A stretch of 64,000 nt of DNA from Syntrophaceae bacterium (GCA_041310335.1 JBFYXW010000063.1:7079-71078); one strand, 5' to 3'; positions 5,810 through 26,365 are shown, counted from the first letter of the stretch. Notes: generated by a model from the letters alone, not told the origin. Translations and numbers: made by a program.

Positions 5810-5861
5810 TGGATCAAACCGGGTTGCTTCGCTCGATTCCACCGCCGGGGCGGACCGGGGG

Positions 5862-5988
5862 CGGGGGCTGTCACGGGGGTTCCCGCCGTCGCGGAGACTT
5901 TTCCGCGGAGCGCAGGGCACAATCGAATGTCCATCCGGATGGAAAAGTCTCCCAATTGCTCCTCTGGGAACCCCCGGCCGCGCCCCCG
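5862..5988 (+). repeat. Copy A of a roughly 125-bp structured intergenic repeat (partner at 22780..22907, minus)
   Basis: By-eye alignment to the reverse complement of 22780..22907. The shared 5' block is CGGGGGCTGTCACGGGGG. There is a 12-bp stem (GGAGACTTTTCC 5893-5904 with GGAAAAGTCTCC 5941-5952). The shared 3' block is GATGGAAA.G..TCCCAAT....C.TCTGG.AACCCCCG.CCGCGCC.CCG. The element ends about 50 nt before the ATG at 6041. Confidence 0.7.
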
Positions 5989-6040
5989 CGGGTATCCCCG
6001 ATAATCCAGTCCCGATGATCCAGGCCGGCGGAGGCCACCC

Positions 6041-8344: not shown

Positions 8345-9469
8345 TCAGCGGGCCTTTCCCAATAGCTGCGGGAGGATCCGTCCCGCCGCCGCCGCGTGCC
8401 CCGCCGGCGACCAGTGGTCGTCGAAGTCCAGGTAGAACTTCCTGCCGTCCGGGGTCTTCCGGACGAACTCCTCGAAATCGACGAAGCGGGTGCGCGGCAC
8501 CCCCCGGCCGAAGTCCCGAAGGACCCACCGGAGGTTCTCTGGCCGGTCCGCCTTGTAGACGATGGACTTGTCGGACGTGGTGGTCAGGATCAGCTCCGCC
8601 CCGCCCGCCGCCGCCCGCAGGCGCCGGAGACCGTAGCGGAGAAACCGGGTCTCGGGGCTGTCGGGCGGTTCCACCGCCTCCAGGGGGGGCGGAAAATCGT
8701 GCCCGGCGGGGGGCGGGTCGACCCGCATGGACTGCCGGATCCGGCGGCTCAGGAGGGGCCGGATGAAGCGGGCGTGGAAGGCCTTCAGGTAGGACTGGTA
8801 GAATCCCTTTTTCAAGGACCGGTACTCCGGTTGGTTCCTCCGGACGAGATCGGCGAAGATCCGCTCGGCCCCGGGCGGTGGGTGGTACGCCAGGTCGTAG
8901 GTCCCGTCGGGGAGCGGCGGCGTCATGCCGTCGATGTCGTTGGGGCAGAAGACGTAGATCACGGCCCGGGGCTTGAGAGCGTCCCGGTACAGTTCCAGGG
9001 CCGCCACGGCCTCCCGGATGCTCCAGCCCGGCATGGCCAGGTTGATCACCTGCCAGGACGGATCCATTTCCCGGAGTTCCCGCTCCAGGACCTGCCCCAG
9101 CGTCTCCGACCAGGAAACGCCCCAGCCGAAGGCAAACGAGTCGCCCAGGACCACCACGTTTTTCCGCCGTGGCGACCGGTCCCATTCACCCCCCCGGAAG
9201 CCCTGCGAGTTCGTGTCCACCGTGTAATCCAGCTGCCCGGGATAGGATTGGCGGACACCCTGGAGGTTTTTCTGGAGGGTGAACCCGAGGACGGGATGAA
9301 AGGCCCCGTACTGGGCCTGAATCACGGGCCGCCGGGCCTGGTAGACGGCCTCATCAAGGCTGCGGTTTTTCACGAGGGGGAGAGAGCATTCTGCGACGGC
9401 CAGGGCGACCGACACCGACAGGAGGACCAGCAGGGCGTCCAGGAGAAAGGTTCGCAGGGGACCTTTCAT
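8345..9469 (-). CDS. Membrane-anchored SGNH/GDSL-family hydrolase, paralogue of 2460..3491
   Basis: Start trimmed to MKGPLRTFLLDALLVLLSVSVALAV (ATG 9469). Block I is VVVLGDSFAFGWGV, block III is VFCPNDIDG, and the C-terminal DFDDHWSPAGH supplies Asp/His. 4-nt overlap with the upstream Vat gene. Confidence 0.75.
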   Translation of the reverse strand: MKGPLRTFLLDALLVLLSVSVALAVAECSLPLVKNRSLDEAVYQARRPVIQAQYGAFHPVLGFTLQKNLQGVRQSYPGQLDYTVDTNSQGFRGGEWDRSPRRKNVVVLGDSFAFGWGVSWSETLGQVLERELREMDPSWQVINLAMPGWSIREAVAALELYRDALKPRAVIYVFCPNDIDGMTPPLPDGTYDLAYHPPPGAERIFADLVRRNQPEYRSLKKGFYQSYLKAFHARFIRPLLSRRIRQSMRVDPPPAGHDFPPPLEAVEPPDSPETRFLRYGLRRLRAAAGGAELILTTTSDKSIVYKADRPENLRWVLRDFGRGVPRTRFVDFEEFVRKTPDGRKFYLDFDDHWSPAGHAAAAGRILPQLLGKAR

Positions 9470-11912: not shown

Positions 11913-13538
11913 TCAGGATGTCAGGGTCATCTTTCCCTCGGCGTACATCTGTCGAAGGTCCCGCTTGCTGAACTTTCCGACGCTCGTCTTGGGGATCGCC
12001 TCGACGAAGGCGAACTGCCGGGGAATCCACCAGTCGGCCTTGACCCTGTCCTTGAGGAAATCCCGGATCTCCTCCACCGTCAGCGTCTCCCCGGGCTTGA
12101 CAACGAGGCAGCCCAGGGGCCGCTCCGACCACTTCTCGTCGGGGATCCCGATGACCGCCGCCTCCAACACCTTCGGGTGGGCCATGATGAGATTCTCCAG
12201 GTCCACCGAGGAGATCCACTCTCCGCCGCTCTTGACGAGGTCCTTCGTCCGGTCCACCAGGCGGACATAACCCTCCGAATCGATGGTCCCCACGTCCCCC
12301 GTGTGGAGCCAGCCATCGGCAAAGACGGGGGCCGACCGCTCGGGATCCTTGTAGTACTCCTTCGCGATCCAGGGGCCCCGGAGCAGGATCTCCCCCCAGG
12401 ACTTGCCGTCGGCGGGGACGTCCCGGCCCCGCTCGTCGACGATCCGCATCTCCAGCCCCGGCACGAGGAGGCCGGCACTGGACTTGACGTCATACATCTC
12501 CTGCTGCGACAGCCCCTCCATGTAGCTCTTCGGGATCGCCGCCAGGACCAGCGGCGTCGTTTCCGTCATGCCGTAGGCCTGGTGGATCGGGAAGCCGTAC
12601 TTCTCGTTGAGTCCCTCCATGAGGAACCGGGGACAGGCGGACCCGCCGGAGAAGATGCCCTTGAGGGAGGAGAAGTCGTGCCACCCCCCGGCCTCGAGGT
12701 ACTGGTAGAGCATCATCCAGATGGTGGGAACGCCGGCGGTGAAGGTGACCTTCTCCTCGGCGATGGCCCGGCAGATCCTCTCCATGTTCAGGAGCTCCCG
12801 CCCGGGGAGGACCTGCTTGCACGCCAGGGCCATGCAGGCGAAGGGCACGCCCCAGGCGTTGGCGTGGAACATGGGCACGACGTGGAGGCAGCAGTCGCTC
12901 TCCAGGGTGCCGAGGGTGCAGCAGGCCGCGTAGGTGTGCATCACGAGGCCCCGGTGGCTGTAGACGACCCCCTTGGGGTCCCCCGTCGTGGCGGAGGTGT
13001 AGCAGATGAGCGCCGGGTCCCACTCGGAGAGGTCCCGCGGCCAGTCGTACTCCGTGGGGAAGGGGGCGATGAGGTCGTCGTAGAGGGTGACGGGGCTGAG
13101 GGACGTCTGGGGCATCTTCCCCGTCTGGGAGAGGATCACGTAGTGCTTCACCGTCGTGAGCTGGTCCTTCACCAGTTCCAGGAAGAAGACCAGGTCCTCG
13201 TCCACGAAGACCACCTGGTCCTCCGCGTGGTTGAGGATGTAGGCCAGGTGGTGCGAGGGCAGCCGGAAGTTGACGGTGTGCAGGGCCGCCCCCATGCAGG
13301 GAACGCCGAAATACAGCTCCAGGTGGCGGTGGCTGTTGAGGGCCACGCTGGCCACGCGGTCGCCCCGCTTCACCCCGAGTGATTTCAGGGCGTGGGCAAG
13401 CTGACAGGTCCGCCGGTAGTAATCTCCGTAGGTGTAGCGGAAGACCTGGTCGGGATAGATGGAGACAATCTCTTTTTTCGGGAAAAACTTCGCCGCCCGG
13501 GTCAGGAACGGCGTCAGCAGGAGCGGGTAGTCCATCAT
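11913..13538 (-). CDS. AMP-dependent acyl-CoA synthetase (medium/long-chain fatty-acid--CoA ligase family)
   Basis: AMP-binding signature YTSATTGDPKGVVYSH, plus GMTETTP, GWLHTGDVG and a C-terminal SVGKFSKRDLR. Start trimmed to MMDYPLLL (ATG 13538, with GGAGGA 7 nt upstream). Confidence 0.85.
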   Translation of the reverse strand: MMDYPLLLTPFLTRAAKFFPKKEIVSIYPDQVFRYTYGDYYRRTCQLAHALKSLGVKRGDRVASVALNSHRHLELYFGVPCMGAALHTVNFRLPSHHLAYILNHAEDQVVFVDEDLVFFLELVKDQLTTVKHYVILSQTGKMPQTSLSPVTLYDDLIAPFPTEYDWPRDLSEWDPALICYTSATTGDPKGVVYSHRGLVMHTYAACCTLGTLESDCCLHVVPMFHANAWGVPFACMALACKQVLPGRELLNMERICRAIAEEKVTFTAGVPTIWMMLYQYLEAGGWHDFSSLKGIFSGGSACPRFLMEGLNEKYGFPIHQAYGMTETTPLVLAAIPKSYMEGLSQQEMYDVKSSAGLLVPGLEMRIVDERGRDVPADGKSWGEILLRGPWIAKEYYKDPERSAPVFADGWLHTGDVGTIDSEGYVRLVDRTKDLVKSGGEWISSVDLENLIMAHPKVLEAAVIGIPDEKWSERPLGCLVVKPGETLTVEEIRDFLKDRVKADWWIPRQFAFVEAIPKTSVGKFSKRDLRQMYAEGKMTLTS

Positions 13539-13617
13539 GGCGTCGTCCTCCATAAACTGTGAAATGGGACGGCCGGGGGCCGCCCTCGGGTTGGCCCCCG
13601 GCTCCGTCACGTCGTTG

Positions 13618-15288
13618 TCAGGGCGCGCCCAGTTTCTGCTTGATGTCCTCCCGCAGGACCTTCTTCAGGATCTTCCCCACGGGGTTGCGCGGAATGGCGT
13701 CGATGACCTCCAGGCGTTCGGGGATCTTGTAGACCGCCAGTCCCTTCTCGTTCATGTAGGCCTTGATCTCCTCCAGGTTCACTGTCTCGCCCGGCTTCGG
13801 CACCACGTAGATGCAGGTCTTCTCTCCCAGGGCCTCGTCGGGCATGGCCACCGCGGCGGCGTCGAGGACCTTCGGGAAGCCCAGGACCATGTTCTCCACC
13901 TCCTGGGCGCTGATGTTGTAGCCGCCCCGGATGATGATGTCCTTCGAACGCTCGAAGAAGCCGATGCACTCGTTGTCCTTCAGCTGGAAGAGGTCGCCGG
14001 TGTTGAAGTACCCCTCGGCGTCGAAGGCCTTGGCCGTCAGGTCGGGCCGCTTGAAGTAGCCGGGGATCACGTTGGGGCCCCGGTACCAGAGCTCGCCGAC
14101 CTCCCCCTCTTTCTTCGGGCCCCCGGGGATGGCGGCGTTCACCAGCTTCATGGAAACATGCTTGGACATCATGGTCCCCGTCCGGGTCCACTTGCTTCCC
14201 GGGCCGTTGAAGAGGAAATGGTCCAGGCGCATGGCCATGTCGGGAATGTCGTAGCCGCTGGCCACGTTGGCCGTCCCCTCGTTCTGGCCCCAGATGTTGG
14301 CGAAGTCGATGCCCCAGCGGCGCCGGAGCTCCTCGACGGACCACAGGGAGGGCGGGGCGGCGCCGATGGTGATGGCCCTCATCTTGCTGAAGTCGAACTT
14401 GTCCACCATGGGGTGCTTCAAGAGAGCGTTCACCACCGCCGGCACGAGCAGCGTGTAGTGGATCTCCTCCGCCATGAGCTGCATGACGAAGGTGGGGCCG
14501 TCGAAGGGGTGGTGGAGGACCAGTTTCCCGCCGCCAATGAGCCACGGGATATACACCGTCCCGATGGAGGCCATGTTGACCAGCGGCCCCGCCGTGATGA
14601 GGTTGTCCCCCCAAGAGATGGGGGCCATCTCGAAGCACAGGTTCCCCTGGCAGATCCAGTTGTTGTGGGAGAGCGGACAGCCCTTGGGCTCCGCCTCCGT
14701 CCCGGAAGACCAGGAGAGGGTGAAGACGTCGTTGGCATCGACGACGATGCCGTCGAGCTTTCCCGTCACGGGCCCCTGAGACATCTCCCGGATCTCCGGC
14801 AGGTAGAGGATCTCCCGGATGGAGGCCTGCTTCGCCTTGACCTTCTCTGCCAGTTCCTTGTGGTTGAAGTTCCCGAAGGACTCGACGGTGAGGATGGCCT
14901 TCGCCTCCGTCAACCCCGCGATGTATTCCAGTTCCGAGGCCCGCCACTGCATGGGCATGGGGGAGATGAGGCCGCCCATGCGCGAAACGGCGAGGTAGAG
15001 CATGGCCAGCTCCCAGGTGTTGGGGAGCTGTACCATGAAGATGTCGTCCTTCCCGAATCCCTTCGCCAGGAGCCCCTCCGCGACGGCGTCGGCGGCCCGG
15101 GCGAGTTCCGCGTAGGTCAGCTTCTCCTGCTTCAGGCCCACCAGGGCCTCCTTGTTCATGGGGTCCACGAGGCAGACCTTGTCGGGCTGCTTGCGGACAT
15201 GGAAGCGGAAATAGTCGAGCAGCGTCTTCTTGCCCCAGGCCCCCGCCTCGGTCCAGCGGCGAATCGTTTCCGGTGATGCCAGGATCAT
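13618..15288 (-). CDS. AMP-dependent acyl-CoA synthetase/ligase (class I adenylate-forming)
   Basis: SWSSGTEAEPKGCPLSH (AMP-binding), YFNTGDLF, RSKDIIIRGGYNISAQEVE and PVGKILKKVLRE. Confidence 0.85.
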   Translation of the reverse strand: MILASPETIRRWTEAGAWGKKTLLDYFRFHVRKQPDKVCLVDPMNKEALVGLKQEKLTYAELARAADAVAEGLLAKGFGKDDIFMVQLPNTWELAMLYLAVSRMGGLISPMPMQWRASELEYIAGLTEAKAILTVESFGNFNHKELAEKVKAKQASIREILYLPEIREMSQGPVTGKLDGIVVDANDVFTLSWSSGTEAEPKGCPLSHNNWICQGNLCFEMAPISWGDNLITAGPLVNMASIGTVYIPWLIGGGKLVLHHPFDGPTFVMQLMAEEIHYTLLVPAVVNALLKHPMVDKFDFSKMRAITIGAAPPSLWSVEELRRRWGIDFANIWGQNEGTANVASGYDIPDMAMRLDHFLFNGPGSKWTRTGTMMSKHVSMKLVNAAIPGGPKKEGEVGELWYRGPNVIPGYFKRPDLTAKAFDAEGYFNTGDLFQLKDNECIGFFERSKDIIIRGGYNISAQEVENMVLGFPKVLDAAAVAMPDEALGEKTCIYVVPKPGETVNLEEIKAYMNEKGLAVYKIPERLEVIDAIPRNPVGKILKKVLREDIKQKLGAP

Positions 15289-15366
15289 CGTTTCCTCCTT
15301 CTTTTCTTCCGGTTGGGCCGACCCCGGCCGGGGCCGGCGGATGCGTTCACGGGCCGCGGCCGTCCC

Positions 15367-17025
15367 TCAACCCTTCCCCTGTTTCTTCATCTCCAGGTCC
15401 CGGAGCTCCCGCCGCAGGATCTTTCCCACGGCGCTTTTCGGGAGGGCGTCCAGGAACTCCACGATCTTCGGGATCTTGTAGGCCGCCAGGGTCTGCCGGC
15501 AGAAGGACGTCACCTCTTCTTCCGTCAGGGTTTGCCCCGGCTTGGCCACCACGAAGGTCTTCACCGTCTCCCCGCGGTAGGCGTCGGGAATCCCGATGGT
15601 GCACACCTCGAGCACCTTCGGGTGCGTCATGAGGAGCTCGTCGATCTCCTTGGGATAGATATTGAAGCCGCTGGCGAGGATCATGTCCTTCTTCCGGTCC
15701 ACGATGGTGACGTAGCCGTCCTCGTCCATGACCCCGATGTCACCGGTGTAGAGCCAGCCGTCGATCAGGACTTTCGCCGTCTCTTCCGGGTTCTTGTAGT
15801 ACCCCATCATGACCTGGGGCCCCTTGAAGCAGATTTCGCCGGACTCCCCCTGCTTCACTTCCGTCTTCCCCGTCTCGAGATCCACGATCTTCAGGTCCGT
15901 GTTGGGGAAGGGGATCCCGACGGTGCCGGGCTTCTCGTCGCCGCCCCAGGGCGTCGCCGTCCCCATGGGGGTGATCTCCGTGAGGCCGTAGATGTTCACC
16001 AGGGGAACGTTCCGCCGCTCCTTGAGCATCTTGATGGTCTCCACCGCCATGGGGGCCGAACCGGTCAGGTAGGCCTTCACAAAGGAGAGGTCCATCTTCT
16101 GGAACCGCTCGGAATGGAGGAGCGCCACGAAAATCGTGGAGACGCCCGGGAGAAACGTGGGCTTGAACTTCTCCAGGAGGTCCAGGATCCGGTCCGGCTC
16201 CGGCCGCGGGACAAGAATGTCCGTCCAGCCGGCGTAGATGGACGTATTCTGGAGCCCCGTCCAGCCGGCGGCGTGGAAGAAGGGGAAGATGGCCAGCGTC
16301 CGCTCTTCTCCGTCCTTGGAGTCGACGAACCAGACCCGGAACTGCTGGGTGTTGAAAGAGATGTTGGCGTGGCTCAGCATGACCCCCTTGCTGAGTCCCG
16401 TCGTGCCGCCCGTGTAGATCAAGGCCCCCAGGTCCTCCAAGGCCGCCTCGTTCGGAACCGGGTCGTCCGGCTGGGGACCGATGAGGTCCATGAATTTGTG
16501 GACCCCCTCCGCGGGCGGAACGTCGGCGGGCGGAAAGAACGGCTTGAGCGGCTCCGGGAGGTAGTCCGCGAGGCCGCAGAGGATGGCTTTCTTCGCCCCC
16601 GTGCTTTGCTGGAGCTTCCGGGCCACCGGGTGGAACAGGTCGAGGGTGACCATCACGGTGGACTCGGAGTCGTTCAGCTGGTGCGCCAGCTCGTGCTCCG
16701 TGTAGAGGGGGTTGTTCATGACGTTGACCGCCCCGATGCGGAACGCCGCGTACTCGGCGATGACGATCTGGGGGATGTTGGGAAGGATCATGGACACCTT
16801 GTCGCCTTTTTTGACCCCCAGGGCGAGCAGGGCCCGGGCGAACCGGTTGACCAGGCCTTCCAGTTGCCGGTAGGTGATGACGGTGCCGAAATAGATGAGT
16901 GCGGGGTTGTCGGGAAACCGCGAGGCTGAACGCGTCAGGGCCTCGGGCATGGTGATCCGGTCGAAGTCCATCTCCGCCGGGATGCCGGGTGGATAGTTCT
17001 TGTGCCAGATCCGCTGGAAAGACAT
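15367..17025 (-). CDS. Long-chain-fatty-acid--CoA ligase (FadD-like)
   Basis: MSFQRIWHKNYPPGIP N-terminus typical of FadD, plus IYTGGTTGLSKGVMLSH, YGLTEITP, GWLYTGDIG and SAVGKILRRELR. Confidence 0.85.
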   Translation of the reverse strand: MSFQRIWHKNYPPGIPAEMDFDRITMPEALTRSASRFPDNPALIYFGTVITYRQLEGLVNRFARALLALGVKKGDKVSMILPNIPQIVIAEYAAFRIGAVNVMNNPLYTEHELAHQLNDSESTVMVTLDLFHPVARKLQQSTGAKKAILCGLADYLPEPLKPFFPPADVPPAEGVHKFMDLIGPQPDDPVPNEAALEDLGALIYTGGTTGLSKGVMLSHANISFNTQQFRVWFVDSKDGEERTLAIFPFFHAAGWTGLQNTSIYAGWTDILVPRPEPDRILDLLEKFKPTFLPGVSTIFVALLHSERFQKMDLSFVKAYLTGSAPMAVETIKMLKERRNVPLVNIYGLTEITPMGTATPWGGDEKPGTVGIPFPNTDLKIVDLETGKTEVKQGESGEICFKGPQVMMGYYKNPEETAKVLIDGWLYTGDIGVMDEDGYVTIVDRKKDMILASGFNIYPKEIDELLMTHPKVLEVCTIGIPDAYRGETVKTFVVAKPGQTLTEEEVTSFCRQTLAAYKIPKIVEFLDALPKSAVGKILRRELRDLEMKKQGKG

Positions 17026-17193
17026 AGGTTCCCTCCTTTTCTTTCACGGTGGAACGTTGGTTGGACATGAACCGGTCCGTCAACCGACGGCAACGGTGCG
17101 TCCGCGCCGGGATACGCCCGGCACGGCGCCCCGTTGCCTCCTATTTCATCCAATGCCCGCTGGAACCACCTCCTCCCAGGCTGTTCTGCTTTC

Positions 17194-18417
17194 TTACACC
17201 TTCAGGATGACCGCCTCGCCCTGGGCCAGGCCGCCGCAGATGGCGGCGACGCCGATGCCGCCGCCCCGGCGCTGCAGCTCGTAGGCCAGGTGCATGGTGA
17301 TCCGGCAGGCGCTGGCCCCGACGGGGTGGCCGATGGCAATGGCGCCGCCGTTGACGTTCGTCTTTTCCTGGAGGGCCTTCCACTTCGCCTCGTCGCCCTC
17401 CGCCAGGATCTTCGTGGACACCAGCGGCATGGCGGCGAAGGCCTCGTTGATCTCGATCAGGTCCATCTGGTCGATGGTCATCCCGGCCCGCTTCAGGGCG
17501 GCCTGGATGGTCAGGGCGGGAATGACGGCGATGTCCCGCGGTTTCGTCGCTGTCCCGACGGTGGCCAGAATGGTGGCCAGGGGCTTCAGGCCCTTTTCCT
17601 CCGCCTTCCTCCGCGTCATGAAGAGGATGGCGCTGGAGCCGGCGCTGATGGGCGGGGCGTTCCCGGCGGTGATCGTCGGGCTGCCATAGACGGTCTTCAG
17701 CTTCGCCAGGGCTTCCAGGGTCGTCCGCCGGGGCGACTCGTCCCGGTCGATGACGATGGGTTCCCCCTTCTTCTGGGGAATGACCACGGGCAGGATCTCC
17801 TCTCCCACCTTGAACTTCCCGGCGGCGAAGGCCTGGGCGTAGCGCTCCTGGGTCTGGCAGGCCCAGGCGTCCTGCATCTCCCGGGTGACCCCGTACTGCA
17901 GGGCGACCTCCCCGGCGTCGACCGAAACGGGAGAAAACCCCTTGGCACCATACCCCAATTCGAACAGGCCGTCTATCAGGCGGATGTGGCCCAGCCGCGT
18001 GCCCTTCCGCAGACCCGGGGCCAGGTGGGGGGTCCGGGGCATGTTCTCGGAACCGACGGCCATGCAGATCTCCGCCTCCCCGGCCCGGATGGCCAAGGCT
18101 CCCAGGCGCAGGGCCGTCAGGGAGGAACAACAGGCCCGGTCGAGGGTGACGGAGAGGCATTCCGCGGGGAAACCCGCCAGGAGGGAGGCCTGCCGCGCGG
18201 GGATGTCCGTCTCCAGGGCCATTTCCGCCATGACGCAGCTCCCGTAGTTGATCTCGTCCACTTCCTCCGGCTTCACGCCGACCCGCCCGATGACCTCCTT
18301 CATGACCAGGACGGCCAGGTCGATGCTCGCGATGTCCGCCATGGCGGTGTCGAATCGGCTGAAGGGCGTCCGGACCGCGCTGACGATGACAATTTCATCC
18401 TTGTCGTGGTGACTCAT
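17194..18417 (-). CDS. Acetyl-CoA C-acyltransferase (thiolase)
   Basis: VSAVRTPF, the active-site LDRACCSSLTAL, NEAFAA, GHPVGASA and CGGLAQG. Confidence 0.9.
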   Translation of the reverse strand: MSHHDKDEIVIVSAVRTPFSRFDTAMADIASIDLAVLVMKEVIGRVGVKPEEVDEINYGSCVMAEMALETDIPARQASLLAGFPAECLSVTLDRACCSSLTALRLGALAIRAGEAEICMAVGSENMPRTPHLAPGLRKGTRLGHIRLIDGLFELGYGAKGFSPVSVDAGEVALQYGVTREMQDAWACQTQERYAQAFAAGKFKVGEEILPVVIPQKKGEPIVIDRDESPRRTTLEALAKLKTVYGSPTITAGNAPPISAGSSAILFMTRRKAEEKGLKPLATILATVGTATKPRDIAVIPALTIQAALKRAGMTIDQMDLIEINEAFAAMPLVSTKILAEGDEAKWKALQEKTNVNGGAIAIGHPVGASACRITMHLAYELQRRGGGIGVAAICGGLAQGEAVILKV

Positions 18418-18443
18418 GGCTTCATCCTTTCCTTATCCCGGAT

Positions 18444-19211
18444 TTACTTCGCCGCCATCCGGATTGCCCCGTCCAGGCGGATCACTTCCCCGTTGAGCAT
18501 CGTGTTCTCGATGATGTGCCTGGCCAGCAGGGCGTATTCCATCGGATTCCCGAGCCGCTTCGGGAAGGGGACGCTCGCCCCGAGGGCGTTTCGCGCCTCC
18601 TGGGGCAGCAGGGCCAGCATGGGCGTGTCGAAGAGCCCCGGGGCAATGGTCATCACCCGGATGCCGTACTCGGCGCACTCCCGGGCGATGGGCAGGGTCA
18701 TCCCCACCACGCCCGCCTTCGAGGCGCTGTAGGCGGCCTGGCCGATCTGGCCGTCGAAGGCCGCCGCCGAGGCGGTGTTGATGATGACGCCCCGTTCGCC
18801 CTCGGCACTCGGCGCGTTCTTGGCCATCTGCTCCACCGCCAGGCGGATGATGTTGAAGGTGCCGATGAGGTTGATCTGCACGACCCAGATGAAGGCGTTC
18901 AGGGGATAGGGCCCCTTCTTGGAGAGGACCTTGGAGGCGGCCCCGACGCCGGCGCAGTTGATGGCGGCGTTGATCGTCCCGAAGGCCCCCACCGCCTTGG
19001 CGATGGACGCCTGGACGCTCTCCTCGCTGGTCACGTCCGTCTTGGCGAACAGGCAGTTGCCGCCCAGCTCGGCGGCCAGGTTGGCTCCCCGCTCCTCCTG
19101 AAGATCGAAAATGACCGCCTTCGCCCCCTCCTTCACGAGGGTCCGCACGCAGGCCTCCCCCAGTCCGGATGCTCCTCCCGTTACCACGGCAATGCAATCC
19201 TTCACGTTCAT
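18444..19211 (-). CDS. SDR-family 3-hydroxyacyl-CoA dehydrogenase (HSD10 / 3-hydroxy-2-methylbutyryl-CoA dehydrogenase type)
   Basis: [15 protein letters not shown] and [12 protein letters not shown]. The overall layout, with LFDTPML and a C-terminal [13 protein letters not shown], is characteristic of type-2 HADH. Confidence 0.85.
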
Positions 19212-19313
19212 GAATCCTGATCCTCCTTTGCAATCATGATGTATCGGATGAATATCGGTACCCGCCCGCCGGGCGGCGGGATCGGCCCCTCCGGCCCGGC
19301 AAGCGGATGCACT

Positions 19314-20495
19314 TCAGCGGAACAGGCCCGCCGCCTCCATCTCCCCGATCTCGGCGTCGCTGTAGCCCGCCTCCCGGAGCACCGCCGCGGTGTCGGTTCC
19401 CGTCGGAACGCCGACGTGGCGGAACTCCGGCTTCGTGGCGGAGAACTTGATGGGACAGCCCAGTTGCCGGACCTTCTCGCCGGACGGGAGGGGGACCTCC
19501 ACGACCATCTCCCGGTCCGCCGCCAGCGGGTCCGCGAAGGCCTCACCCATGGTCAGCACCGGCTCCGTGCAGGCGTCCGTGGCGTCGAACAGGGCCTTCC
19601 ACTCCGCCAGGGTCTTCGTCCGGAAGGCGGCCCGAATCTCCTCCTTCACCTGGGCGATGTTCTTCGGGGACACGGTGCCGGCGATCAGGTCCGGTCGGCC
19701 CAGGGTGTTGCAGAAGTTGGCGAAGAACTGGGGCTCCAGGGGACCGCAGCTGAGGTACCGCCCGTCCTTCGTCTCGTAGTAGTCGTAGAGGGAGCCGCCG
19801 TTGAGGAGGTTCCCCTCGAAGCCCGGCTCCTTCCCGTCCACCAGGAAGGCGGCGCCGAACATGGCGTTGAAGGCGATCATCCCGTCGGTCATGGAGATGT
19901 CGACGAACTGCCCCTTCCCCGTCTGCTGCCGGCCGAAGACAGCGGCGAGGATGCCGACGACGGCGTGGTTGGACCCGGAGGCGACATCGGCGATCTGCAT
20001 GCTCACGAGGGAAGGCCCCGACGCCATTTTCCCCGTGTAGGAGGACACGCCGGAGCGGGCGATGTAGTTGATGTCGTGCCCCGCCCGGTCGCGGAGCGGC
20101 CCCGTCTGGCCGTACCCGGTGATGGAGCAGTAGACGACCCGGGGGTTGACCTTCGCAAGGGCCTCGTAGTCCAGGCCGAGCTTGCCCATGACGCCGGGCC
20201 GAAACTGTTCGACGACAACGTCGTAATTCTGGAGCAGGCGGTGCACCACTGCGACGGCCCGGGGCTCCTTCAGGTTGAGGGCCATGTTCCGTTTGTTCCG
20301 CCCGAGGTAGGCCGACGCGGCGGAGAGCTTCGTCCCCGGGACGAACGGCGGGAAAAAATCCACCAGGTCCGGCCGGGACGGCGACACGATGCGCAGGACC
20401 TCCGCCCCCATGTCCGCCAGGAGCATGGTGGCATACGGCCCCGGCAGCAATGTCGTGAAATCGAGAATCTTCAGTCCCTGAAGCGGTCCGGCCAT
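19314..20495 (-). CDS. Family III CoA-transferase fold protein, alpha-methylacyl-CoA racemase (Amacr/Mcr)-like
   Basis: LKILDFTTLLPGPYATMLLADMGAEV, AGHDINYIARSGV (catalytic His context), IADVASGS (Asp context), GKGQFVDISMTDG, EPQFF and EWKALFDATDACTEPVLT. These closely parallel the Amacr blocks I know. Confidence 0.8.
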   Translation of the reverse strand: MAGPLQGLKILDFTTLLPGPYATMLLADMGAEVLRIVSPSRPDLVDFFPPFVPGTKLSAASAYLGRNKRNMALNLKEPRAVAVVHRLLQNYDVVVEQFRPGVMGKLGLDYEALAKVNPRVVYCSITGYGQTGPLRDRAGHDINYIARSGVSSYTGKMASGPSLVSMQIADVASGSNHAVVGILAAVFGRQQTGKGQFVDISMTDGMIAFNAMFGAAFLVDGKEPGFEGNLLNGGSLYDYYETKDGRYLSCGPLEPQFFANFCNTLGRPDLIAGTVSPKNIAQVKEEIRAAFRTKTLAEWKALFDATDACTEPVLTMGEAFADPLAADREMVVEVPLPSGEKVRQLGCPIKFSATKPEFRHVGVPTGTDTAAVLREAGYSDAEIGEMEAAGLFR

Positions 20496-20526
20496 GATCC
20501 CCTCCTTTCTTCAGCCTTCGCTGATC

Positions 20527-21669
20527 TCAGAGCCCCATGAATTTCGAAATGATGCCCTTCATGATCTCATTGGTTCCCGCGAAGATCCGGGTCACCCGGA
20601 TGTCCCGCCAGGCCCGGGCGATGGGGTACTCCTCGCAGTATCCATATCCCCCGTGCAGCTGGACGCACCGGTCGGCCACGCGGCAGGCCATTTCGGTGAC
20701 CCAGTACTTGGCCATGGACGTCTCGACAACGACGTTCTTCCCCTCCATGTGGTCGGCAATGAGCTTGTCGACGAAGGTCCGTCCCAGCTTGATCTCCGTG
20801 GCCATCTCGGCGAACTCGAACTGGCTGTGCTGGAACTTGGCGATGGGCTTCCCGAAGGCGGTCCGCTCCCGGCAGTACTTGATCGTCACGTCGAGCATCA
20901 ATTCCGCCGCCACCTCGGCACCTAGGGCACAGACGAGGCGCTCCTGCTGGAGCTTCATCATCAGGTTCACGAAGCCCGACCCCTTCGCCCCCAGGCGGTT
21001 CGCCGCGGGGATCCGGCAGTCGGTGAAGTACAGCTCCGCCGTGTCCTGGCTGTGCCAGCCCACCTTCTTGATCTGCCGACCCTTCTCGAAGCCCGGCGTG
21101 CCGGCGTCGACCAGGTAGAGGTCCACCGCCCGGTGGGGGTTCTCCACCGCCGGGTCCTTCGCCGCGATGACCAGGAGGTCGCAGTTGATGCCGTTGGAGA
21201 TGAAGGTCTTCTGGCCGTTGATGACGATCTCGCCGTCCTTCTCCACGGCGGTCGTGCGGATCGCCGCCAGGTCGCTCCCCGTGTTGGGCTCCGTCATGGC
21301 GACGGCGGTGATGCAGTCACCGGTGACGCAGCCCGGGAGGTACTTCTGCTTCTGCTCCTCCGTGCCGAAGGAGAAGACGTAGGGCACGATGATGTCGCTG
21401 TGGAGGGAGGCCGCGAGGCCCGAGAAGTTGGTCTTCGCCATCTCCTCGCAGACAATGACGGAGTACAGGAAGTCCCCGCCTGCCCCGCCGTACTCCTCGG
21501 GAACCCAGGTGCTGAGGAAGCCGTTTTCCCCCATCTTCTGCCAGGAACTCTTGGGGACGATGCCCGCCTCCTCCCACTCCTCGATGTGGGGGATGATCTC
21601 CTTCTCCAGGAAACGCCGCAGGCTCTCGCGAAAAATCTTGTGTTCATCCGTGTAATGCAGAATCTCCAT
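20527..21669 (-). CDS. Acyl-CoA dehydrogenase
   Basis: 380 aa. MTEPNTGSDLAAI, FISNG and the C-terminal QLHGGYGYCEEYPIARAWRDIRVTRIFAGTNEIM. Confidence 0.9.
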   Translation of the reverse strand: MEILHYTDEHKIFRESLRRFLEKEIIPHIEEWEEAGIVPKSSWQKMGENGFLSTWVPEEYGGAGGDFLYSVIVCEEMAKTNFSGLAASLHSDIIVPYVFSFGTEEQKQKYLPGCVTGDCITAVAMTEPNTGSDLAAIRTTAVEKDGEIVINGQKTFISNGINCDLLVIAAKDPAVENPHRAVDLYLVDAGTPGFEKGRQIKKVGWHSQDTAELYFTDCRIPAANRLGAKGSGFVNLMMKLQQERLVCALGAEVAAELMLDVTIKYCRERTAFGKPIAKFQHSQFEFAEMATEIKLGRTFVDKLIADHMEGKNVVVETSMAKYWVTEMACRVADRCVQLHGGYGYCEEYPIARAWRDIRVTRIFAGTNEIMKGIISKFMGL

Positions 21670-22002
21670 TGCTCTCCTCCCCTTCGTATCGGTCTACGCG
21701 TAAATACAGATTCCCAGATGCCCCTTCCAGAAGACCGCACTCACAGCCTTCCGGACTCGTGACGAATGATGCACGGGACCCATCCAGCCCCCTCCGGATC
21801 GGGATGTCGTCAAAGACCTTCCGATCCCCCGTCCCGGCGAGCGGAGCGTCCGTTTCTGAATCGGGCGCCCATGCTCGAGGCCCCGCGGTTCTTCTCCCCG
21901 CGGGTCGATCACCTGCACCAGCCTCCGCTTGCATCGGGGGCGCTCCGGGACGGTTTTCAATCGGGTGCGATCGATGCGAGCAGGGTGCGGCGTACGGACG
22001 GG

Positions 22003-22653
22003 TCACGCCTTTTCGAGGTCGCCCTTGCCCTCCCGCTGGACAAAGGCGGGAATCAGGACAAATTTCAGGACTTCCTTCACGTGGGCCATGTATGCTTCCC
22101 GATCCAGTCGGGTCATGGCGCGGAAGTAAGCCTCGCCGGAAATGTAATTGTAGATTCCGTTCATGACCGCCAAAACTTCCAGGAGCGGCCTGGCGGACGC
22201 ATTTCGCTTGTCCTGGATCAGGTTCATGGAGCGGGCAATATCGGCCACGAATTCGGGAACTTGGATCTCTTGCAGGGCCTCCTCCCGGGTGCGGCCGAAA
22301 TAGCGGAAGAGGATCAGGTTGGGGATTTCCGGGTGTTCGAAAAGAAAATCCGTCATGGTATCGATGGAGATGGCCAGGCGTTCGGCCAGGGGACGACCGT
22401 GGACCATCTTCTCGACATAGCGAAGGCTCTGCCCCAGGTCCTTGTTGATATCCAGGACGACGGCCTCGTAGAGGTCCTTTTTGTCGCCCCAGTGGTAATG
22501 GAGGGTGGAGATGTCGATGCCCACTTCCTGGGCGATCATGCGGGTGGTGGTCCCGTGGTAGCCGTATTCCCCGAAGATCCGCCGGGCGGCGTCGAGGATC
22601 CTGGCTTTCATCGATTCGGGATCTTGACGGGCTTTTTCCAGGGCCGTTTTCAT
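22003..22653 (-). CDS. TetR/AcrR-family transcriptional regulator
   Basis: HTH region ARILDAARRIFGEYGYHGTTTRMIAQEVGIDISTLHYHWGDKKDLY. Start set at ATG 22653 (MKTALEKA, with GGAG 9 nt upstream). The longer track start at 22692 lies inside the operator palindrome and has no RBS. Confidence 0.85.
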   Translation of the reverse strand: MKTALEKARQDPESMKARILDAARRIFGEYGYHGTTTRMIAQEVGIDISTLHYHWGDKKDLYEAVVLDINKDLGQSLRYVEKMVHGRPLAERLAISIDTMTDFLFEHPEIPNLILFRYFGRTREEALQEIQVPEFVADIARSMNLIQDKRNASARPLLEVLAVMNGIYNYISGEAYFRAMTRLDREAYMAHVKEVLKFVLIPAFVQREGKGDLEKA

Positions 22654-22661
22654 CGACGGGC

Positions 22662-22705
22662 TCCATCCGACAGTTCCATCCGTTGATTCCATCGAACGAT
22701 GGAAT
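22662..22705. promoter_or_regulatory. Putative TetR operator: inverted repeat ATTCCATCG-AA-CGATGGAAT plus two direct TCCATCCG half-sites
   Basis: The 9-N2-9 inverted repeat lies at 22686-22705. Additional half-sites TCCATCCG lie at 22662-22669 and 22675-22682. The IR overlaps the -10 and the predicted +1 of the tetR promoter. Confidence 0.6.
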
Positions 22706-22732
22706 TCTAGCGGGTAACATCCCTCCTGTCAA
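22704..22732 (-). promoter_or_regulatory. Sigma-70 promoter of tetR (TTGACA-N17-TAGAAT)
   Basis: Minus strand: TTGACA (22732-22727), an exactly 17-nt spacer, then TAGAAT (22709-22704), about 50 nt upstream of ATG 22653. Confidence 0.65.
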
Positions 22733-22934: not shown

Positions 22935-22962
22935 TTGACGAAGAGGGAGAACATGGTAAAAT
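22935..22962 (+). promoter_or_regulatory. Putative sigma-70 promoter (TTGACG-N16-TAAAAT)
   Basis: TTGACG at 22935-22940, a 16-nt spacer, then TAAAAT at 22957-22962. It is about 200 nt upstream of the PagL-like gene, so the linkage is uncertain. Confidence 0.35.
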
Positions 22963-23163
22963 GCCCTGAATCGGAAACTCCAAGCCTCCCGCCTCCCCGC
23001 AAGGACAAGGGCGCGGGAACCCTTCGCATCAAATGTCCATCGGCCTGCCGGCGTGCATTCCTCCGGCGGCTGCGGTTTTTCGACCTGACCGACTGTTCAA
23101 AACCCCTTATCCTTTTTGAACGACCGCCCGGGCAATCCGGGCCTTCCGGGGAGGAATCGCCTC

Positions 23164-23763
23164 ATGAAGACGCAACATCGAAAGGCCCTCCAGGCGACGA
23201 TCACGGTGCTTGTCCTGGCCGTCTTCACCACGCCGATTCCCGCAGCGGCGGACACAAGGGGAGACTGGGCCGTCACGGCCTACGGCGCCGTCCAGACCCA
23301 CAGCGACCTCTGGGAAATGTTCCACAACCCCGATTTCGAAAACAATTACCACTTCCTGGCCGTGGCGCTTTCCCGGAGGATCCACTCCCTGTCTCGGCAC
23401 CTCGACCTGGAGGTCGAGGGCCAGGCGGTCAAGCACTTCGGAGACCAGAACCACTGGGAGTTCAACGCGCTCCTCGCGCTCCGGTGGAACACCTTTCCCT
23501 GGGACTCCTACCTCGACACGAGCTTCGCCTTCGGCAACGGCCTCTCCTACGCCACCCGGACGCCCAGGATCGAGGAGGTCCAGCACGAGAAGACCCACGC
23601 GTTCCTGGACTACATGCTCTTCGAACTGGCGCTCTCCCTCCCGCAGGAACCAAGGTGGAGTCTGGTCTGGCGGATTCACCACCGGTCGGGCGCCTTCGGC
23701 CTTTTCAACGGCGTGCGCGGGGCCTCCAACGCCCTGGGCATGGGCTTGAAATATCATTTCTAG
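23164..23763 (+). CDS. Outer-membrane beta-barrel protein, PagL / acyloxyacyl-hydrolase-like (lipid A deacylase family)
   Basis: Signal peptide MKTQHRKALQATITVLVLAVFTTPIPAAA. Alternating beta-strand pattern and an OMP-type C-terminus GLKYHF. RIHHRSGAFG resembles the H-x-S catalytic motif of PagL (IHYSNAG). Start trimmed to ATG 23164. Confidence 0.5.
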   Translation: MKTQHRKALQATITVLVLAVFTTPIPAAADTRGDWAVTAYGAVQTHSDLWEMFHNPDFENNYHFLAVALSRRIHSLSRHLDLEVEGQAVKHFGDQNHWEFNALLALRWNTFPWDSYLDTSFAFGNGLSYATRTPRIEEVQHEKTHAFLDYMLFELALSLPQEPRWSLVWRIHHRSGAFGLFNGVRGASNALGMGLKYHF

Positions 23764-23873: not shown

Positions 23874-24893
23874 TCAGCGGGACGCCGTTTCGACGAACAG
23901 GGGGAGGAAGACGGCCAGGTCCTCCACGATCCCGTACCGGGCCACCCGGAAAATGGGCGCCGCTGGATCCCGGTTGACGGCGACGATGCAGCGGGAGCCC
24001 TTCATCCCGGCCAGGTGCTGGGACGCTCCGGAGATCCCGCAGGCCAGGTAGAGGTCCGGCGCCACGGTCCGGCCCGTCAGGCCCACCTGGTGCCGGTACC
24101 CGAGCCACCCCTGGTCGCAGACGGGACGGGACGCCCCCACGGCGGCGTTCCGGAACAGGCCGGCCAGGCGCCGGATCCACTTCAGATTTTCCTCCCCGCC
24201 GATCCCCCGGCCAGCTGCGACGATGACGTCCGCCTCCTCCAGGTCCATCCCCTCCCGCTCCCCCAGCCTCTCCCCGCGCAGCGTGATTCTCTTCCGCCCC
24301 GGGGCGGCCTCGCGCAGCAAAACGGCAGCGGCCATGCCTCCCGGATCGGACGCGACCGCGGCGGATTCCTCCTCACCGGGGCCGGTGAAGCCGGGCAGAA
24401 CGGTCAGGACCGCGCAGGGCGTTGCCGGCTCGACCTCCATCCGCATGCGCCCCCGGCAGACGGAGCGCAGGAAGGTCCACCGGCCGTCGCGGAAGGCGGA
24501 CTCCTCCACGGCGGTGATGCAGGCCGCCCCGAGACGGACCGCCAGGGCGGGTGCCAGGTCGGCCCCCCTCGTGTCATGGGCCAGGACGACATGGACGGGA
24601 TCGATATCCCGGATGAGGGAGGCAAGGGCCAGAACGGCGTCTTCTCCGCAGGACGGGTCGGCGTCTCCCCCCCGGAGGGCAAGCACGGCCAGCCCGGTCC
24701 GGGCGGAGACTTCCTGGGCTGCCGCTTCCGGGTCGGCGCCGCAGAGTGCGACGGCGGCGCGCCCGCCCGCTCCTCTCTCCAGAAACCGGGCCGCGGCGGC
24801 GGCCTCGAATGTTGCCGGGAGGATGCCGGTTTCGTCGCACCAGCCGACGGCCACACTCGTAAATACGTTCAGGGGAATGCAATCGTCAGCCAT
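23874..24893 (-). CDS. etfA: Electron transfer flavoprotein, alpha subunit (no adjacent beta subunit)
   Basis: C-terminal FAD-binding block [15 protein letters not shown]...[11 protein letters not shown]...[47 protein letters not shown]. Confidence 0.85.
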
Positions 24894-24902
24894 CGCGTGA
24901 AC

Positions 24903-25277
24903 CTATTGCGAACGCTTTTCGCGGAGCTTCGCCTCTTTTTTCTCCTGCTTCGCCAGCGCCTTCAGGGCCTTCTTGTCCATACCGGATCCCGGGGCCGGCA
25001 GGCCTTCCGGGGACGGCTCCGCTTCCCCGGACCCATCGGCAACGGCACCGCCGCTGGTCCTGGGCGGTCCGTCCGGCGCGGGCAGCGTGCCTGAACCGCC
25101 GGGGCCGGCCGTGCCGGCAGGCCCGGCGGGACCGGACCTGGACGCAGCATCCGCCTTCTTTTTCCGCATCCGGGCCATGACCGCCTGGGCGGAACTTTTG
25201 CCGAACTGGCCGATGAAACCCGCCAGGAGTACCAACAAAACCCATGTGAGGATGTCCCACGCGGCGATGTCCGTCAC
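24903..25277 (-). CDS. Hypothetical single-TM protein with a Pro/Gly/Ala-rich disordered region and a Lys-rich tail
   Basis: WDILTWVLLVLLAGFIGQF is the TM segment, followed by low complexity and KKALKALAKQEKKEAKLREK. 4-nt overlap with mobB and 9 nt before etfA. The coding call rests on operon packing. Confidence 0.5.
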   Translation of the reverse strand: MTDIAAWDILTWVLLVLLAGFIGQFGKSSAQAVMARMRKKKADAASRSGPAGPAGTAGPGGSGTLPAPDGPPRTSGGAVADGSGEAEPSPEGLPAPGSGMDKKALKALAKQEKKEAKLREKRSQ

Positions 25278-25801
25278 GGCGCATCGCCCCCCAGAACAGT
25301 CCGCTCGATGAAATCGCAGAGGGCGGGAATGTCGTCGGGCCCGAACCGGGGCACCTCGCAGGGGATGGGCGATCCCGAGACCACGGCGACGCAGCGGTCA
25401 TCGGGCCCGCAGAGCCGATCGGGGTGGACTTCCGGCCGGAACACCTCGATCTTGGGGTGGGGATTTTTCTTGAATCCTTCGGCGAGGACGAGGTCCGCGT
25501 CGCGGATGTAGCGGTCCCGGAGTTCCTCCATCGTGTAATCCCGGGGGACGTCCTCCACGAGGGCGACCTGGTGCGGGGAGGCGACAACGGTCATGCGGGC
25601 CCCGGCGTGCTTGTGGCGCCAGCTGTCCTTCCCCTCATGGTCCATCTGGAAACCGTGGCGGTTGTGCTTGATCGTGGCCACCCGCCAGCCCCGCCGGACC
25701 AGCTCCGGGATCAGGCGCTCGATGAGGGTCGTCTTGCCCGTGTTGGACTTGCCGACGATGGACAGGATGGGGATGCCTCTTCTTCCGGGACTGCCGCTCA
25801 T
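25274..25801 (-). CDS. mobB: Molybdopterin-guanine dinucleotide biosynthesis adapter protein MobB
   Basis: ILSIVGKSNTGKTTLIERLIPEL (P-loop), ATIKHNRHGFQMDHEGKDSWRH and LVLAEGFK. Confidence 0.85.
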   Translation of the reverse strand: MSGSPGRRGIPILSIVGKSNTGKTTLIERLIPELVRRGWRVATIKHNRHGFQMDHEGKDSWRHKHAGARMTVVASPHQVALVEDVPRDYTMEELRDRYIRDADLVLAEGFKKNPHPKIEVFRPEVHPDRLCGPDDRCVAVVSGSPIPCEVPRFGPDDIPALCDFIERTVLGGDAP

Positions 25802-25847: not shown

Positions 25848-26150
25848 TCACGCGGAACGGGGGCGGAAGGGGGAAAACACGTATTCCTTGTCCCGCACGG
25901 CGAAGGCGATCCGGTCCTCCTCGTTGGCCGTGATCCGGCCCTCGATGATCCGCTTGCAGCCGAAATCGTAGAACGTGATCTGGTGGGTGGGCACCTGGTC
26001 GGCCGGCATGTCCGGGAAGGACTGGGTCTTTTCCTCCGCCGAGAGTTCCCGGACCGTGAGCTTCTGGCACCGCTCCCGATTCTCTTCCTCCCCCAGGCGG
26101 ATCTGGACCAGGTAATTGCCGTGAAACGAGATGGGCATCCGGATTTTCAT
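25848..26150 (-). CDS. Hypothetical protein
   Basis: Start at ATG 26150 with a GGAGGGAG RBS 5 nt upstream, and GC3-rich codons. I recognise no family. Confidence 0.5.
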   Translation of the reverse strand: MKIRMPISFHGNYLVQIRLGEEENRERCQKLTVRELSAEEKTQSFPDMPADQVPTHQITFYDFGCKRIIEGRITANEEDRIAFAVRDKEYVFSPFRPRSA

Positions 26151-26365
26151 CGGTTCTCCCTCCATCGTTCGAGTGGCCACTTCATACCACATGCCGGGTC
26201 AAATGTCATGGCGGGGATGGACAAGAAGGGGATTGATTTCCCATGCAGCGCCCTTTCTTTTGTGCTATCGTCCCCCCGTCATGAGCGCTCCTCACCGTCC
26301 CGCTGCCCGCCCGGCCGCTCGCCCATGACCCGACCGCCGGACGGATTCCTCGAAATGGGAGGACC

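Follow-up and report, generated by a model that had tools for sequence, protein, structure and literature searches.

In the classical TetR/tetO system of Tn10 a dimeric helix-turn-helix (HTH) repressor acts on its own promoter through a palindromic operator placed at the -10/+1 region and is released by its ligand. Among the repressors of this family FadR (YsiA) of B. subtilis, FadR of T. thermophilus, PsrA of Pseudomonas, and FasR and KstR of Mycobacterium combine the TetR HTH with an all-helical fold, are encoded beside genes for acyl-CoA dehydrogenases (ACADs), hydratases, thiolases and ligases, and have a palindromic operator laid over the promoter in an autoregulatory layout. Other members bind extended or multiple sites cooperatively, as is the case for QacR on IR1, EthR on its 55-bp operator, and SlmA, which spreads on DNA. 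In methanogenic communities the Syntrophales, i.e., Syntrophus, Smithella and their relatives, break down alkanes and fatty acids as well as alicyclic or aromatic acids, and to our knowledge almost nothing is known about the regulation of these pathways. In this work we analyzed a tetR gene with its promoter and operator in a stretch of 64,000 nucleotides from a Syntrophaceae bacterium (GCA_041310335.1, JBFYXW010000063.1:7079-71078), the whole of which is referred to here as the window and provides all coordinates unless another genome is named. We hold with good confidence that the locus represents the autoregulated promoter of a TetR-family repressor which is widespread in Syntrophales and which most likely also gates the acyl-CoA operon downstream.

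The locus shares with TetR/tetO of Tn10 a palindromic operator at the -10/+1 region of the repressor gene's own promoter, but it differs in its presumed effector class and in that its targets are co-directional and downstream instead of a divergent efflux gene. The HTH and all-helical fold, the neighbouring genes and the autoregulatory layout are those of the FadR, PsrA, FasR and KstR type of repressor, while the operator TCCATC-N4-GATGGA differs from those of PsrA and of the FadRs. As for QacR, EthR and SlmA, the operator is longer than one dimer site, here a dyad followed by one to three extra phased half-sites; unlike in those systems the extension consists of one-sided direct repeats with a 13-bp period, the number of which depends on the lineage.

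An earlier note on this DNA, prepared from the sequence alone, had described a tetR promoter with an overlapping palindromic operator, and every string that it quoted was found in place upon direct reading of the window. On the minus strand, the -35 hexamer TTGACA (22727-22732) and the -10 hexamer TAGAAT (22704-22709), separated by 17 nt, form a near-consensus sigma-70 promoter which matches at 11 of 12 positions; the promoter scan of this 1.8-kb region returned two promoter-like sites against 0.2 expected. Directly after the -10 and straddling the predicted transcription start is the core operator palindrome TCCATC-GTTC-GATGGA (gene sense, 22688-22703), which can be extended to ATTCCATCGAACGATGGAAT (22686-22705), i.e., the inverted repeat ATTCCATCG-AA-CGATGGAAT. 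Two TCCATCCG half-sites follow at 22675-22682 and 22662-22669, and the earlier observation that the extra half-sites reach the ribosome-binding site is borne out. In the numbering used here half-site 2 (GATGGAA, minus strand, 22674-22680) is located 13 bp downstream of the right arm of the palindrome, half-site 3 (GATGGAG, minus strand, 22661-22667) is at +26 and overlaps the Shine-Dalgarno GGAG (22664-22661), and half-site 4 (GATGAA, one mismatch, within GATGGAGCCCGTCGATGAA; minus strand, 22649-22654) is at +39 and contains the tetR ATG (22653-22651). These three GATGGA-like hexamers start at 22680, 22667 and 22654, with a successive offset of exactly 13 bp; both the fourth half-site and this exact phase are additions to the earlier description. 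The half-site array spans the ribosome-binding site and the tetR start codon, giving an operator of about 55 bp in the window. Tandem Repeats Finder reported nothing on the 13-bp array, because the units are too divergent outside the hexamer.

The strength of the site was assessed with a 20-nt weight matrix built from 45 distinct orthologous operators, the window itself being excluded, and with the best scores of 30 simulated windows as control (range 3.5 to 18.3 bits). The tetR operator scores 29.8 bits, within the 16-32 bits of true operators, and the next best locus in the 64 kb reaches 7.0. When the palindrome was searched with none or one mismatch the tetR site was the sole match in the window, and TCCATCCG was found 11 times against 5.9 expected, four of these 11 being the sites under discussion. 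Neither the tetR promoter nor its operator is at all likely to have arisen by chance.

Conservation was addressed in 80 loci from different Syntrophales species, annotated as Syntrophaceae or Syntrophales metagenome-assembled genomes and carrying TetR orthologues 63-80% identical to that of the window, by aligning the DNA upstream of the start codons. In approximately 65 of the 80, CTTGACA-N17-(-10) runs directly into TCCATC-N4-GAT(G/T)GA(A), after which there is usually TCA and then (G)ATGGA exactly 13 bp further; the CTTGAC is found at the same distance as in the window in most of these loci. Counted from the ATG, the palindrome as a rule starts 37 nt upstream, 29-30 nt behind the first base of TTGAC, and this fixed distance sets it flush with the -10 in the orthologues. 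All of the 65 orthologous operators tallied have a spacer of 4 bp, the bases of which vary freely, and 43 of the 65 have a half-site at +13. The offsets of the extra half-sites show sharp peaks at +13 (59 cases) and +26 (21 cases) over a background of 0-5. Most lineages have one extra direct unit, the clade of the window (the window and L141-L144) has three, and L081 has four; the window clade carries one 13-bp unit more than most species, so that its distance from palindrome to ATG is 50 nt as opposed to 37. This comparison extends the promoter and operator of the earlier note to most of the species and supports its suggestion of a classic autorepression layout.

In the three sister genomes L141-L143, whose TetR is 98% identical, the core palindrome is identical and all four half-sites are kept with a single exception, half-site 3 of L142, where GATGGA has become GGTGGA. 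The changes in these genomes fall into the spacers between the sites (CTGTCG to CTTTAG), the spacer of the promoter, and the -10, where TAGAAT reads TAGGAT, as in L141; the same four-unit layout is also kept in L144 (TetR 87% identical). Retention of the half-sites while the surrounding non-coding DNA has diverged is the signature of purifying selection, as judged from these alignments. In 19 of the 65 orthologues (found between L005 and L061, e.g., L008, L026, L030, and L042) the +26 half-site coincides with the start codon and a following Glu codon (GATGGAA read as nATG GAA), and the first two tetR codons may be constrained by the operator.

The same alignments speak to the nature of the element. 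Forty of the 65 operators have a variant arm, of which 24 read TCCATC/GATTGA and seven TCAATC/GATGGA, and none shows the compensated pair TCAATC/GATTGA, which indicates that the sequence and not the base pairing is conserved. In addition, the left arm of the dyad is at or upstream of the predicted +1 and hence would be outside the mRNA. Both features argue that the operator works as DNA and not as RNA. An RNA hairpin or riboswitch, be it at the palindrome or in the gap between tetR and the ACAD gene, was considered and rejected on the lack of compensation in the 40 variant operators and on Rfam searches, which gave no match at the gathering threshold or at E<=1.

The tetR coding sequence (22003-22653, minus strand, 216 aa) begins with an ATG at 22653 which is preceded by GGAG 7 nt upstream, and its N-terminus is shared with a database protein of 216 aa that is 100% identical and with about 2000 homologues. 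The upstream ATG at 22692 was rejected as a start, being devoid of a ribosome-binding site and with all homologues beginning at the equivalent of 22653. The protein matches PF00440 (TetR HTH) over residues 19-65 with 61.1 bits against a cut-off of 24, and its AlphaFold2 model (mean predicted local distance difference test, pLDDT, of 78.5) has 12 helices and retrieved many TetR structures in Foldseek with a probability of 1.00 and TM-scores of 0.6-0.7. Its domain and its modelled fold make the protein a genuine member of the TetR family. Among the structures CecR/YbiH and RutR come closest, neither of which is an acyl-CoA sensor, so that the fold fails to identify the ligand; the acyl-CoA sensors FasR, FadR of B. 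subtilis and B. halodurans, and PsrA/PA3006 rank lower, and KstR was also among the matches. The scores against the NCBIfam equivalogs are 44.1 bits for PsrA (threshold 300) and 28.3 bits for FasR (threshold 330), with all matches confined to the HTH, so that the protein belongs to none of the named equivalogs, and sequence matches in the PDB extend no further than the HTH region or the N-terminal two-thirds. Literature searches for this TetR regulator returned no relevant paper. In the window, as in most of the 80 loci, tetR adjoins ACAD, hydratase, ligase or thiolase genes.

Downstream of tetR the minus strand of the window encodes an ACAD (20527-21669), a family III CoA-transferase (19314-20495), an SDR (18444-19211), and a thiolase (17194-18417), assigned by Pfam and NCBIfam, and then three putative acyl-CoA ligases. 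Of these the first (15367-17025) has an NCBIfam match to AMP-forming acyl-CoA ligases, and the second (13618-15288) and third (11913-13610) are so labelled from the length of the open reading frame (ORF) and the paralogous repeats D1 and D8 only. These three tandem paralogous ORFs of 552-565 aa (11913-17025) make up the distal end of the putative operon, and the internal direct repeats D1 and D8 reflect their paralogy. The gene order tetR-ACAD-CoA-transferase-SDR-thiolase is kept in L001-L004 and L141. Scans of the 333-nt non-coding gap between tetR and the ACAD gene (21670-22002, minus strand) for promoters and terminators, with the weight matrix and against Rfam found no promoter-like site, minus-strand terminator, operator or Rfam match, and an 88-aa ORF within it was discarded as a gene because it is not conserved. 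With a gap of this kind co-transcription from the tetR promoter is the simplest reading, and read-through would probably join the downstream genes (11913-21669) to tetR in one transcript. In L144 the equivalent gap measures only 155 nt and has a weak dyad-like site, GCTTCATCAATTGGTGCAAG (10.4 bits, L144 coordinates 1366-1385), just before the ACAD start; no equivalent of this site was found in the 333-nt gap of the window.

Operators in other genomes point in the same direction. Public metagenomes were scanned with the pattern TCCATC-N4-GATGGAA-N6-GATGGAA, in which the spacer is fixed at 4 bp, and 53 loci were identified, some 37 of them directly before TetR orthologues. Others precede an MFE-2-like hydratase/dehydrogenase/SCP2 gene or a KAS-III-like (thiolase-like) gene with a ChsH2-type OB/zinc-ribbon domain; the latter heads an operon with tetR, two ACADs (73% identical to that of the window) and a CoA-transferase. 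Smithella-type loci have a second, very strong operator (25-32 bits) about 800 bp upstream of tetR on the opposite strand, which has its own CTTGACA-N17 promoter and precedes an operon for an enoyl-CoA hydratase and an acyl-CoA ligase. A +13 half-site, AGATGGAA, occurs there too, with the start codon about 100 nt further on and provided with its own AGGAG, and a half-site so far from the start codon indicates that the extra half-sites are not merely ribosome-binding sites. In the close relatives L081 (8826-8915) and L082 (approximately 8734-8823) the slot syntenic with the tetR of the window has no tetR and keeps the same promoter; a dyad, half degenerate, comes next with four GATGGAA units in phase, and an ACAD gene (74% identical to that of the window) begins about 200 nt further on. 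The fourth unit, CGATGAAAT, resembles the tetR start of the window, and the array could be the remnant of a lost tetR or could be controlled in trans by a TetR encoded elsewhere. The occurrence of operators before acyl-CoA genes in relatives suggests that the regulon of this TetR subfamily consists of neighbouring genes of acyl-CoA metabolism, which, together with a gap free of terminator and promoter, makes the control of the beta-oxidation operon proposed in the earlier note plausible.

A mechanism can be proposed on this basis. Presumably one TetR dimer would occupy the palindrome and further subunits or dimers the 13-bp-phased GATGGA half-sites, such that the bound repressor would cover the DNA from the -10/+1 region to the start codon and would block RNA polymerase from starting or from clearing the promoter. 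Through the tetR promoter the same operator would most likely gate the whole beta-oxidation-type operon, and the inducer which releases the repressor may be a CoA-thioester of the pathway or its free acid. More speculatively, the 13-bp array might allow directional and cooperative loading of TetR subunits along the leader from the dyad as nucleation site, to produce a tunable roadblock, the length of which would fix the threshold for inducing syntrophic acyl-CoA catabolism; this would be an unusual way of binding for a TetR protein, and it is an idea to which we give rather little weight. The anatomy of the site, its conservation at a fixed position across species, and its recurrence before acyl-CoA genes of relatives are what the analysis shows; the neighbouring TetR as the binder, the stoichiometry, the co-transcription of the operon, and the nature of the ligand are all what we infer.

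Several points weigh against an autoregulated promoter that also gates the operon. The whole case is built by inference from sequence. For a junction within an operon a gap of 333 nt is long, and a promoter of a type outside the model of the scan could be concealed in it. The TetR protein is without a close characterised relative, its best NCBIfam match, PsrA, reaching 44 bits where 300 are required, and the class of ligand is guessed from gene neighbourhood alone. With an offset of 13 bp two ordinary TetR dimers on successive sites would share 3 bp, which clouds the stoichiometry, and the second register in the window is a weak palindrome of 3-6 bits. Finally, GAUGGA fits the A-N-GGA motif of CsrA-type RNA binders, and a role at the RNA level is possible for the downstream half-sites.

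This last point leads to the alternative that survives best, although we regard it as improbable, namely that only the palindrome is a TetR operator and that the GAUGGA repeats act in the mRNA, either as sites of a CsrA-like regulator or as part of the ribosome-binding region. The positions lend themselves to it: every direct half-site comes after the predicted +1, with the last two lying over the Shine-Dalgarno sequence and the AUG, the +13 element of most orthologues is found 7-10 nt before the ATG, where a Shine-Dalgarno sequence is expected, and GAUGGA contains the A-N-GGA core of CsrA sites. The Smithella second operators, however, have the +13 half-site equally, although translation there starts about 100 nt on behind a separate AGGAG, and the four phased units of L081 are about 200 nt from the ACAD start. 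The conserved bases moreover include the T/A flanks of GATGGAA, which are those of the palindrome arm and not those of a purine-rich Shine-Dalgarno sequence, and the strict 13-bp phase to the palindrome is a feature of DNA geometry. Binding of the extended operator as DNA by TetR is preferred.

The earlier note had gone further and proposed a regulon of three loci, in which TetR would repress not only its own operon but also hyp-mobB-hyp-etfA, through a site at 26161-26176, and a glycosyltransferase locus, through a site at 5930-5943. The half-site strings on which this was founded are indeed present at all three loci; as functional operators the sites at 26161 and 5930 did not hold up and appear to be chance look-alikes, and we consider such a regulon very unlikely. 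In its favor the exact 12-mer TCGAACGATGGA is common to the operator and to the 26161 site, which is located between a conserved promoter-like block and a ribosome-binding site and is among the best 11 of 127,962 window positions by weight matrix; the electron-transfer flavoprotein (ETF) is also a sensible partner of an acyl-CoA dehydrogenase, and at 5930 the same hexamer forms a perfect palindrome.

The 12-mer is at 26161-26172, where the plus strand reads TCCATCGTTCGA and the minus strand TCGAACGATGGA, and the claimed operator, CCACTCGAACGATGGA (26161-26176, minus strand), is more simply one half-site fused to the ribosome-binding site GGAGGGAG of the ORF which starts at 26150. In gene sense the site reads CCACTC-GAAC-GATGGA, with a matching right arm and a left arm correct at three of six positions. 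Its weight-matrix score of 2.3 bits is below the best score of every one of the 30 simulated windows, and its three mismatches to the palindrome are shared by 48 of the other 50 sites with three or fewer, a class with 51 members in all against 37 expected. Recurrence of a 12-mer elsewhere in this GC-rich window is common: 71% of all 44-nt segments contain such a 12-mer, as do 39% when segments of similar GC content are counted, and four of the shared bases belong to the spacer, which is variable in true operators. Conservation is equally lacking: in the sister genome L141 (98% identical), whose tetR half-sites stay intact, the core has become GACGGA, and of six substitutions in 110 nt three are within the 16-bp site; the equivalent of the core is AGAGGA in L085 and ACAGGA in L081 and L082. 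Relatives keep the promoter-like block (ATGACATTTGA..GGCATGTG.TA.GAA) and the ribosome-binding site, and the stretch between them which holds the 26161 site is the least conserved. In 11.8 kb of L141 spanning both operons the weight matrix found only the tetR operator above 6 bits, and in the metagenome scan, which covers sites with a 4-bp spacer only, none of the 53 operator-bearing loci had the operator before an ETF gene. The 26161 12-mer was rejected as a second operator on its score, the frequency of such recurrences, and the lack of conservation in L081, L082, L085, and L141, and with it falls the proposed control of hyp-mobB-hyp-etfA.

The first ORF behind this site encodes a conserved 100-aa protein (25848-26150, minus strand) which belongs to no Pfam or NCBIfam family and has about 100 homologues in Syntrophales and other Desulfobacterota. 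As a rule its gene immediately precedes mobB and a further small ORF, which in the window are at 25274-25801 and 24903-25277, respectively. In the window clade an ETF alpha-like gene follows (23874-24893) with no ETF beta gene beside it, and in other genomes uvrC takes this place.

As regards the third site, the palindrome TCCATCCGGATGGA (5930-5943), i.e., TCCATC-CG-GATGGA, has a spacer of 2 bp against the 4 bp of all 65 orthologous operators tallied, scores -20.8 bits by weight matrix, and is one of 13 perfect 14-bp palindromes in the window; no promoter-like site was found near it. It is part of a lineage-specific intergenic repeat, of which copy A (approximately 5855-5990, plus strand) contains the palindrome and copy B (approximately 22914-22770, minus strand) is just upstream of the tetR -35, the two being 73% identical over 135 nt and 80% over a 59-nt core. 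At the equivalent place copy B reads CCGCAGAGATGGA, that is, only GATGGAAA, without the left arm, and the left arm is also absent from the orthologous spacer of L145 (glycosyltransferase 79% identical), which reads GGCTGGAGGGATGGGA / GGCTGGAGGGATGGGAAAA and contains several copies or fragments of the repeat family (approximately 1380-1945 of L145). From copy B and L145 it follows that the GATGGRAA piece belongs to the consensus of the repeat and that the left arm is private to copy A. Spacer length, score, and non-conservation led us to rule out the 5930 palindrome as a third operator, and the suggested control of the glycan locus is not supported. Taken with the failure of the 26161 site, this indicates that TetR is a local regulator and not the center of a multi-locus circuit, with both sites outside the system as far as their sequence and conservation can tell.

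The repeat family itself is GC-rich and has three parts: GGGGGCTG(T/C)CACGGGGG, a CGCGG-loop-CCGCG hairpin, and CCCAAT..CTCTGG.AACCCCCG. In the window each of the two copies precedes a gene and is oriented like it. L141 lacks the 59-nt core at the orthologous position upstream of tetR, which makes the core an insertion/deletion polymorphism. The two copies were also considered as a structured RNA, which was rejected given unconvincing folding z-scores (-2.4 and +1.0) and no Rfam match.

That some other factor binds the palindrome and the repeats, their closeness to tetR being incidental, draws on the pairing of TetR and DNA being itself deduced from sequence and on the similar arrays of the metagenome matches L102, L106, L122, L133, and L129, where no TetR gene is present on the short contigs available, but is hardly credible against a motif which accompanies a TetR orthologue in about 65 of 80 species and about 37 of 53 pattern matches, is always placed on a promoter, either that of tetR or that of a neighbouring acyl-CoA gene (L131, one of the apparent exceptions, being a decayed tetR), and has the 16-bp dyad with half-sites 10 bp apart from center to center that is typical of a TetR dimer. 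In the group of L102 left-oriented half-sites also flank the dyad and are followed by repeated GGACAATTTTGTCC palindromes, and in L129 four or five 13-bp-phased units are found among small ORFs without known function. Such arrays could be additional targets of this regulator, or they could serve a related protein on a mobile element.

For the window the outcome is mainly corrective, in that wiring of the ETF and glycan genes to TetR should stay out of the annotation. Added interest comes from the conserved array of phased half-sites and from a usable operator motif for an ecologically important and poorly studied order: the motif footprinted across the orthologous loci, TC(C/A)ATC-N4-GAT(G/T)GAA together with the phased +13 half-site, is that of a TetR subfamily which occurs in at least 80 species-level genomes, and it can be used to predict substrate-induced acyl-CoA gene clusters in uncultured syntrophs.

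On the other side of the tetR promoter the divergent gene at 23116-23763 (plus strand, 215 aa) is served by a strong promoter of its own, TTGACG-N16-TAAAAT with a TG extension (22935-22962, plus strand), which was identified by the promoter scan about 200 bp away, is outside the operator, and carries none itself. The encoded protein has no Pfam or NCBIfam match, and the neighbour is kept in relatives as a 199-aa protein, which is 68% identical in L081 and L082.

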